Virus genome (UHGV): UHGV-0175408
Length of the DNA stretch: 21,394 nt
Source of the DNA: a virus
Direction: 5' to 3' (one strand)
How positions within the stretch are numbered: position 1 is the stretch's first letter; each line of letters begins with the position of its first letter. Positions 13,521 to 13,924 of this stretch are shown piece after piece. The notes under the pieces are model-generated. The model searched no databases. It saw only the letters and a list, made by a program, of their open reading frames with translations, and was not told where the DNA came from. The position numbers and the translations under genes were made by a program.

Positions 13521-13686
13521 GATGGCAGCCTCCTTGAGCAGTGAAAAACTTCCACCACCGGAGCTGCGAAACTCATGGGTGGTGAACTGAACAGGGTTCG
13601 CAGTACCGGCGCTCAAGGAAACCGGCGAGCCTTTCGGCTCCCCTGCCCAGCCCACCATAATTCTGGCGTGCGCGAGCATGGACGAT

Positions 13687-13706
13687 AAAAAAGACGCTGG
13701 CGCGTC
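13687..13706 (-). terminator. Candidate intrinsic terminator within the early-right operon (tR-like)
   Basis: On the minus strand: stem gacgc/gcgtc with loop gcca followed by tttttt. Confidence 0.35.
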
Positions 13707-13897
13707 GTATATCGCCTCGAGCAATTCCGGGCTGCGACCCCCGGCCCCCGCTTTATAAGGGGCAGAGACAGTGTAACGTCCCGAAATTGCAGAATCAATA
13801 TTTAGGCTTGAAACATTCATATGCTTACTGGTATTTTTGTTGACGTTCTTGGATTCTTGGGCCTGCTTTATGCAGTTGCCTGTATCAACGTTGAGCG

Positions 13898-13924
13898 AGC
13901 CGGGTTACTACCCGGCTTTTTTTC
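13898..13924 (+). terminator. Rho-independent terminator on the plus strand (no assigned upstream gene)
   Basis: Stem agccgggt/acccggct with loop tact, followed by ttttttt; T-tract abuts the rha stop codon. Confidence 0.5.

Follow-up and report, generated by a model that had tools for sequence, protein, structure and literature searches.

Locus and anatomy of the IsrK–C4 module

The 21,394-nt DNA of the virus genome UHGV-0175408 (the whole stretch is referred to as the window) is a segment of a lambdoid prophage whose early-right operon lies on the minus strand. A LexA-like CI repressor gene (15449..16141, plus strand) is neighbored on the minus strand by a Cro/YdaS-like gene (15087..15401) and an Rha/antirepressor-like gene (rha, 13923..14672). 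The latter matches Pfam Phage_pRha (E = 2e-7) and phrog_63 (anti-repressor Ant), and its E. coli relative is annotated as an Rha family regulator. Between rha and a gene starting at 13520 lies a region of about 400 bp, which is the subject of this study and very probably represents an IsrK–C4 antisense-RNA switch of a known kind, not a tR1/nut-type attenuator. The operon genes past this module are, in order, two small open reading frames (ORFs), a gene for a helix-turn-helix replication-initiator-like protein, a DnaC-like gene and a DnaB helicase gene, and the Q antiterminator gene (8909..9292, minus strand) is found 3.9 kb further down the operon than the module.

The whole window was scanned against Rfam, and matches were judged by the curated gathering scores. 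As a result, only isrK and C4 exceeded the threshold inside the region, as adjacent and full-length matches on the minus strand. The 77-nt IsrK/seqA-like small RNA occupies 13763..13687 (RF01394, 55.4 bits versus a gathering score of 50, model positions 1-77 of 77). It is followed, after a spacer of 24 nt, by the C4/P4-CI-like antisense RNA at 13662..13575 (RF01695, 84.4 bits versus 45, model positions 1-87 of 87). The c4-a1b1 family (RF03163) scored 20.6 bits on IsrK, which is under its threshold. By every sequence and structure criterion applied, the region is, as far as sequence and predicted folding can define it, a member of the IsrK–C4 family.

Each element expected around the two RNAs could be located on the minus strand. 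A promoter read from the sequence (TTGATT-N17-TACACT, 13796..13768) ends 5 nt before the start of the IsrK model. It aligns positionally with PisrK of Gifsy-1 (TTGACA/TATATT) and with PLE of P4 (TTGCCT/TATAGT), its hexamers recur in 23 of the 25 distinct upstream variants compared, and the homology between otherwise different loci starts just upstream of its -35 element. Within IsrK, the decoy sites a1 and b1 lie at 13738-13732 and 13722-13715, respectively. The 3' end of the IsrK match coincides with a terminator consisting of a stem at 13706..13693 (GACGC-GCCA-GCGTC, hairpin -8.5 kcal/mol) and a U6 tract at 13692-13687, and the T-run is invariant across 53 modules. The preliminary description of this DNA had noted the hairpin and U6 at 13687..13706; they are present as placed and form a genuine conserved intrinsic terminator, a partial stop inside the operon. 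Its assignment as a tR1-like attenuation point was not upheld, the terminator belonging instead to an IsrK–C4 module with its own promoter inside the long ORF described below. A simple hairpin/T-run search over 2.8 kb with shuffled controls returned 7 terminator-like sites versus 3.5 ± 1.9 in the shuffles, a count that is not significant alone; the terminators are therefore supported by conservation and family matches, not by the number of sites.

C4 exposes two segments, b' in a hairpin loop (13621-13611) and a' in a single-stranded stretch (13603-13597), and it contains an AUG like that of orf45 at 13658-13656. The corresponding target region (13529..13570) comprises a2 (13570-13564) and b2 (13539-13529). 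The strong Shine-Dalgarno sequence AAGGAGG is contained in b2, 8 nt before an internal ATG at 13520 that opens the gene predicted to be regulated (13158..13520, minus strand). This gene encodes a 120-aa Rha-family N-domain protein matching phrog_995 (E = 1e-57), and its match to TIGR02681 phage_pRha (E = 3e-10) falls below the cut-off of that model. The conserved structured element as a whole spans from ~13800, at the promoter, to 13518. Minus-strand RNA from 13763..13521 folded at -112.9 kcal/mol compared with -92.4 ± 5.2 kcal/mol for shuffled sequences (z = -3.9), and none of the 200 shuffles folded as well.

The pairing between these elements was assessed by comparison across loci. A scan of viral contigs with a degenerate C4-core pattern yielded 120 loci, from which 53 distinct modules in register with the window were aligned. 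In these modules the three helices of C4, a long closing stem enclosing two hairpins, were 100 % paired, with 10 pairs changed on both sides. Pairing of a' with a2 and of b' with b2 was kept at 99.7 %, and 11 of the 18 pairs had changed on both sides; when the partner was slid by 1-3 columns, pairing dropped to 36-44 %, and the covariation score was reached by none of 500 shuffles. The decoy pairs a1-a' and b1-b' were likewise paired at 98.9 %, with changes on both sides in 11 of 15 pairs. Six a-types and 10 b-types were found in 17 combinations, and the recognition sequences therefore assort as a specificity code, such as has been described in the literature on P1/P7 heteroimmunity (PMC12197685). 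The elements of the module are intact, their complementarities are held by compensatory evolution, and one of the targets covers the ribosome-binding site of the 13520 gene.

Short-segment duplexes calculated for the window had energies of -22.1 (b'-b2), -14.2 (a'-a2), -15.6 (b'-b1) and -20.2 kcal/mol (a'-a1). They were used together with the covariation counts in place of full-length C4-target duplex folding, which was uninformative (it opens the C4 stem). No further paired a/b sites were found in the window. In both the minimum-energy and the centroid folds of the read-through RNA, a1/b1 were paired in cis with a'/b', corresponding to the silent 'structure A' of Gifsy-1 (PMC4825925).

Since lambdoid prophages are mosaic and the module is a portable cassette found before different genes, it might be regarded as an inactive remnant carried along by recombination. 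This is extremely unlikely, however: the promoter, the terminator, the C4 helices and both target pairs are intact, the a and b sequences agree among their three copies in the window, and 98.9-99.7 % of the pair cells are kept across the 53 variants.

The module arrangement matches 359 of 5426 complete E. coli genomes and 378 phage records, many of them from phages converting their hosts to Shiga toxin (Stx) production. Two tandem IsrK–C4 modules of different a/b types are carried by locus L016 (matches 9728-9760 and 11040-11072, minus strand) and by locus L087 (656 nt apart). The frame of the second module opens with an ATG at the stop codon of the Rha-like gene in the first module, preceded by a strong GGGAGG Shine-Dalgarno sequence. 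The first codons past the module (M-A-T-V/I-P or M-A-T-T-L) are conserved in the window (13506-13520) and in L005, L024, L076 and L077, and the genes that follow them differ, being Rha, P4 Kil or a 77-aa protein without a Pfam match. Since these codons stay the same before genes of different families, the boundary of the cassette is placed a few codons into the regulated gene.

The 'Ash family' reading frame

The module is spanned by an ORF of 220 codons (13158..13820, minus strand), in which the translation of the module is fused in frame to the Rha-like gene. The ORF opens with an ATG at 13818..13820, upstream of the IsrK promoter. E. coli relatives with 92 % identity annotate it as 'ash family protein', and the exact 220-aa sequence is present on metagenome contigs. 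Residues 16-108 match Pfam Phage_ASH (PF10554) with 65.4 bits versus a gathering score of 26 (E = 7e-18), and these residues correspond to 13775..13497, which is exactly IsrK, C4 and a2/b2. The long ORF had previously been described as a low-complexity extension. It does exist as an ORF, but its first 100 codons match Phage_ASH and are not simply of low complexity.

The Phage_ASH match and the annotation in E. coli would also fit a coding reading, in which the region encodes the N-terminal 'Ash' domain of a 220-aa Ash–Rha fusion and the RNA matches are incidental. Ash has been treated as a domain of the Bro network in published work (PMC10111431), and the ORF has been described in Stx-converting phages as an Rha/Ash protein of unknown function (PMC8951638). 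Furthermore, almost every enterobacterial version keeps this frame open and has an ATG in frame further upstream. The diversity at the three codon positions nevertheless argues against such a protein. Among 72 alignable modules no third-position excess was present in the Ash frame, the diversity at positions 1, 2 and 3 being 0.26, 0.26 and 0.25. In the 19 loci that share the downstream gene of the window, the values were 0.176/0.165/0.133 for the module versus 0.045/0.050/0.163 for the gene at 13520, which thus shows the usual coding signature with a threefold third-position excess in the same loci. Because codon-position diversity is flat in the module, the amino acid sequence of Ash is under no detectable selection, and its conserved 'motifs' are conserved RNA nucleotides. 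The authors of the Gifsy-1 study described orf45 in similar terms, with a conserved nucleotide sequence and a variable amino acid sequence (PMC4825925).

Other observations likewise stand against the coding reading. The substitutions track RNA pairing in three places at once, and the ORF contains a conserved promoter. In Gifsy-1 the frame is interrupted by a TGA immediately ahead of the orf45 AUG, and it is not kept open in P1-like and more distant C4 loci. In addition, the anchor of the Pfam family is the 'cI' ORF of P4, a sequence that functions as an RNA (PMC4825925, PMC3632133). In phage P4 (locus L123, 7888-8584), PF10554 falls on this obsolete ORF, the old 'cI gene product (AA 1-137)', where Rfam finds the CI RNA, and P4 epsilon belongs to another family, PF25738. 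The 'Ash' domain of Pfam and PGAP is a conceptual translation of the RNA module. A pure protein reading was dropped in view of the Rfam matches, the codon-position test and the position of PF10554 on the P4 cI ORF, and the Ash–Rha fusion with incidental RNA matches is considered very unlikely. The view of the region as structured non-coding sequence, put forward in the preliminary description, was borne out insofar as it is a structured regulatory RNA region and not a protein domain selected for its amino acids. A survey of P4-like satellites took PF10554 as the profile for epsilon (PMC8628076), and its epsilon component may have tracked the immunity-RNA region instead.

The rha-proximal segment and the plus strand

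Positions 13801..13924 form a separate segment that is less widely shared than the structured element. A strong plus-strand terminator abutting the rha stop had been reported in this segment, and it is present and conserved. It consists of a 9-bp stem, a 4-nt loop and a T7 run (13897..13925, stem 13897..13918, hairpin -16.7 kcal/mol), and the T-run abuts the rha stop codon (13923-13925). The hairpin is followed by no T-run on the minus strand, and the terminator therefore acts on plus-strand transcripts only. The loci for comparison of this segment were chosen by a pattern that forced part of the conservation; the GTTCTTGGAT motif was forced by this search pattern, and its conservation was not counted as evidence. 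The rha–module intergenic pattern gave 91 loci in viral contigs, and a scan of genome contigs found none of this intergenic type. The terminator was represented by 24 distinct variants from 93 loci, in which the loop and the length of the T-run vary and the stem is invariant, so that no covariation is available for the stem. The 50 nt to the left of the terminator fall into three divergent types.

A candidate plus-strand promoter with a TG-extended -10 element (TTGAAA-N18-TATTTT, 13808..13837, 9/12 consensus matches) sits 55-85 nt upstream of the terminator. Its hexamers and spacing are kept in all three intergenic types (with TATCTT in one), and promoter-like sites in the region are not enriched above shuffles. 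The predicted antisense RNA of ~80 nt (13844..13925, plus strand) folds at z = -4.1, with a conserved outer helix and compensatory changes in two pairs of the inner hairpin, and has no match to an Rfam family. Most phages sharing the module are without this segment, query coverage stopping at ~13801. Judged from these sequence features, the plus-strand RNA may exist, and we regard it as a tentative prediction on the doubtful side.

The predicted RNA resembles lambda OOP in being a short RNA opposite the early-right operon that ends at a strong terminator beside the gene upstream of the replication region. It would overlap rha by at most 3 nt, whereas OOP overlaps cII; its promoter is only a consensus match, and no Rfam family covers it. 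An OOP-like transcript is plausible in that a promoter-like site lies at a fitting distance for an RNA of ~80 nt, but the analogy is weak with regard to overlap with the upstream gene.

Taken as a whole, the model of a tR1-like attenuator combined with an OOP-like RNA that ends at 13924 and down-regulates the operon is unlikely. It draws on the conservation of both terminators, on the extended -10 promoter-like site kept in three divergent types, and on the folding and the two compensatory pairs of the 82-nt RNA. However, the minus-strand terminator is preceded by IsrK's own promoter and is not simply an operon attenuator, and the overlap with rha differs from that of OOP with cII. The plus-strand stem is invariant and without covariation, promoter-like sites occur at chance level, part of the conservation was forced by the selection pattern, and the segment is absent from most module-carrying phages. 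In addition, no N-type Pfam match was found among the pL-side ORFs tested, with no dedicated search for nut or boxA/boxB made, and the Rfam scan of the window reported nothing of the N/nut type. How transcripts pass the terminator without N/nut, a question raised in the preliminary description, has a known answer in the characterized relative: in Gifsy-1 the IsrK terminator is leaky, and the regulated mRNA is the read-through RNA (PMC4825925). A terminator leaky by design would likewise explain read-through without N/nut in the window.

Two further candidate products were discarded. A plus-strand ORF for a 43-aa hydrophobic peptide (13821..13952) contains the terminator, and the predicted transcript starts downstream of its ATG. 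The known prophage small RNAs AgvB and AsxR of enterohemorrhagic E. coli were ruled out by their location at the PR' moron site. Further up the operon, rha and the Cro/YdaS-like gene flank a BssS-family ORF (14679..15002, plus strand, Pfam E = 9e-15). This ORF runs against the early-right operon and has its own plus-strand terminator at 15031-15059, and pR transcripts would need to traverse this region. Two tRNA genes (5442-5592, minus strand) lie downstream of the Q antiterminator gene.

Known systems and the predicted switch

The closest points of comparison are offered by Gifsy-1, P4 and P1/P7. In Gifsy-1 isrK–orf45(STnc1160)–anrP, the isrK and C4 families share one strand and succeed each other as in the window, between antQ and anrP. 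The two loci align element by element over the promoter, IsrK, terminator, C4, short linker, Shine-Dalgarno sequence and ATG. In both, the 5' arm of the C4 stem contains the AUG of orf45 or its counterpart, b2 contains the Shine-Dalgarno sequence for the gene that follows, and IsrK is complementary to the C4/orf45 region, whereas the a/b specificity sequences differ. The gene at 13520 was considered as an anrP homolog and this was dropped (BLASTP E = 0.83, different Pfam families). Part of the transcripts from the isrK promoter of Gifsy-1 pass the IsrK terminator into orf45 and anrP; this read-through RNA is translationally silent, and a stable RNA of ~80 nt, STnc1160, is processed from it (PMC4825925). 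The short IsrK opens the structure in trans, with Hfq binding shown for Gifsy-1 only (PMC4825925), and translation of anrP requires translation of orf45 (PMC4825925, Hershko-Shalev et al. 2016). The same authors regarded IsrK as a structural homolog of P4 seqA and compared STnc1160 with the P4 CI RNA (PMC4825925). Barquist et al. also equated IsrK with seqA and C4 with CI, and noted that some lambdoid prophages carry the system (PMC3632133).

The immunity region of P4 (PLE–seqA–CI–seqC–kil) shares the Rfam order IsrK/seqA and C4/CI between PLE and kil. PLE aligns with the IsrK promoter of the window, and in both cases the module precedes replication functions and is crossed by an open frame that runs in frame into the first gene. 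P4 differs in that the gap between seqA and CI is ~107 nt versus 24 nt in the window, that the downstream gene is kil and not an Rha gene, and that P4 is a satellite whereas the window belongs to a lambdoid prophage. The outcome of the P4 system is Rho-dependent termination at timm.

The immI operon of P1/P7 (a1 b1–c4–a2 b2–icd–ant) has in common with the window a C4-family RNA with a'/b' whose targets are duplicated upstream and downstream, the downstream pair lying over a ribosome-binding site before an antirepressor-type gene. The specificity also differs between related phages (PMC12197685). In contrast, the long frame is not maintained at the P1-type loci of the sample. At the P1/P7-like loci L008, L029, L055, L088 and L098 its open stretch around C4 extends only from about -98 to +106, and some of them have a 66-codon ORF across C4, ending where other loci have the start codon.

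On the basis of these systems, the following mechanism is proposed. The sigma-70 promoter at 13796..13768 would drive the 77-nt IsrK RNA, which would end at the weak intrinsic terminator. A fraction of the transcripts would pass this terminator, and C4 would be excised from the resulting precursor. Pairing of C4 with a2/b2 would block translation of the Rha-like gene, and this block would, through polarity, limit the replication genes behind it. Both within the long transcript, in cis, and as a short RNA acting in trans, IsrK would compete for a'/b' of C4 and thereby turn translation on. The a/b sequences would serve as a specificity code differing between phages. The switch would control the Rha-like gene at 13520 and probably also the genes behind it. 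That the mechanism holds in this detail in the present phage appears moderately likely by analogy with the relatives.

Several points weigh against this interpretation. The steps of transcription, processing and regulation are all transferred from Gifsy-1, P4 and P1, and the loci were gathered by a C4-core DNA pattern, which biased the sample to close C4 relatives, many of them sharing ancestry. There are also departures from Gifsy-1: the orf45-like frame runs into the next gene in the window versus an AUGA overlap in Gifsy-1, the downstream protein is of the Rha family whereas AnrP is ORF6N, and the module stands after rha and ahead of the replication genes, while that of Gifsy-1 is directly downstream of antQ. 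Furthermore, the Ash frame is kept open to a degree that a purely non-coding model does not predict. Among 61 distinct modules, 2 distinct stop positions were found in the Ash frame versus 17 and 21 in the other frames, and 0 stop-containing cells were observed versus 20 expected with column frequencies held fixed, a value as low as this being reached in 0 of 2000 permutations. The corresponding observed and expected numbers were 52 versus 72 and 132 versus 133 in the other two frames. The deficit of stops in the Ash frame holds in the IsrK half and the C4 half alike.

The pure non-coding reading, with the ORF regarded as spurious, was accordingly dropped given the conservation of the Ash frame as open, and translation of the long ORF and function of the RNA may coexist. 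This conservation of the open frame was observed within the group of lambdoid and P4-like elements of enterobacteria. An in-frame ATG just upstream of the IsrK promoter is provided by each of at least six upstream contexts that are unrelated to one another, and in one of them the ATG is coupled to the stop of the preceding gene and has a strong Shine-Dalgarno sequence. In P4-like modules (e.g. L015, L019, L024 and L031), 39 extra nt, or 13 codons, are inserted between the IsrK terminator and C4 (columns 66 and 100-137 of alignment A1), and the frame is kept. In P4 itself the frame is already open upstream of PLE, crosses seqA and CI without a stop and joins Kil (MATTLTPSHP...) in frame. The window also differs from Gifsy-1 with respect to the upstream part, its frame being open through IsrK to the ATG at 13820, whereas that of Gifsy-1 is interrupted by the TGA. 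C4 and the downstream ATG are at a fixed distance from each other (+106 in 86 of 94 loci), and the AUG at 13658 is therefore in frame with the start at 13520; in the window the two are separated by 46 codons with no stop between them.

The open Ash frame suggests that transit of ribosomes from upstream is functionally used, either in coupling or in a promoter-dependent bypass of the terminator and the switch. Coupling very probably starts from the AUG in C4, as it does in Gifsy-1. Ribosome passage could possibly also override the IsrK terminator and the C4 block on transcripts from an upstream promoter. We tentatively consider, as a less than even possibility, that the switch reads the promoter of origin, with ribosomes on upstream-promoter transcripts erasing the switch and the 'Ash domain' being the footprint of this arrangement. 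The upstream promoter would then be pR, via rha, in the window and PLL in P4, and the ribosomes would cross the IsrK terminator, the C4 stem and the masked Shine-Dalgarno sequence. Transcripts from the internal IsrK promoter, which are without the start codon at 13820, would remain under RNA control. Translation of kil/eta is said to prevent termination of P4 transcripts from the upstream PLL, as reportedly found by Forti et al. in 1999. If so, this would be a precedent for the bypass.

The kind of switch described here is already known, and the new points are the three-way quantitative covariation, the lack of a coding signature in 'Ash', and the conservation of the open frame. The label 'ash family protein' in hundreds of E. 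coli prophages and Stx phages in fact covers an RNA immunity/antirepressor switch, and with 'Ash' being a translated RNA, 'Ash' domains are to be read differently in comparisons of phages and satellites. In a group of Stx-type phages with poorly understood regulation, the switch precedes the replication genes. The mix-and-match code of the a/b sequences could set which co-resident prophages and satellites cross-regulate induction, which bears on the biology of Shiga-toxin phages. If true, the ribosome-driven bypass would be a compact way for one sequence to yield promoter-dependent outcomes.

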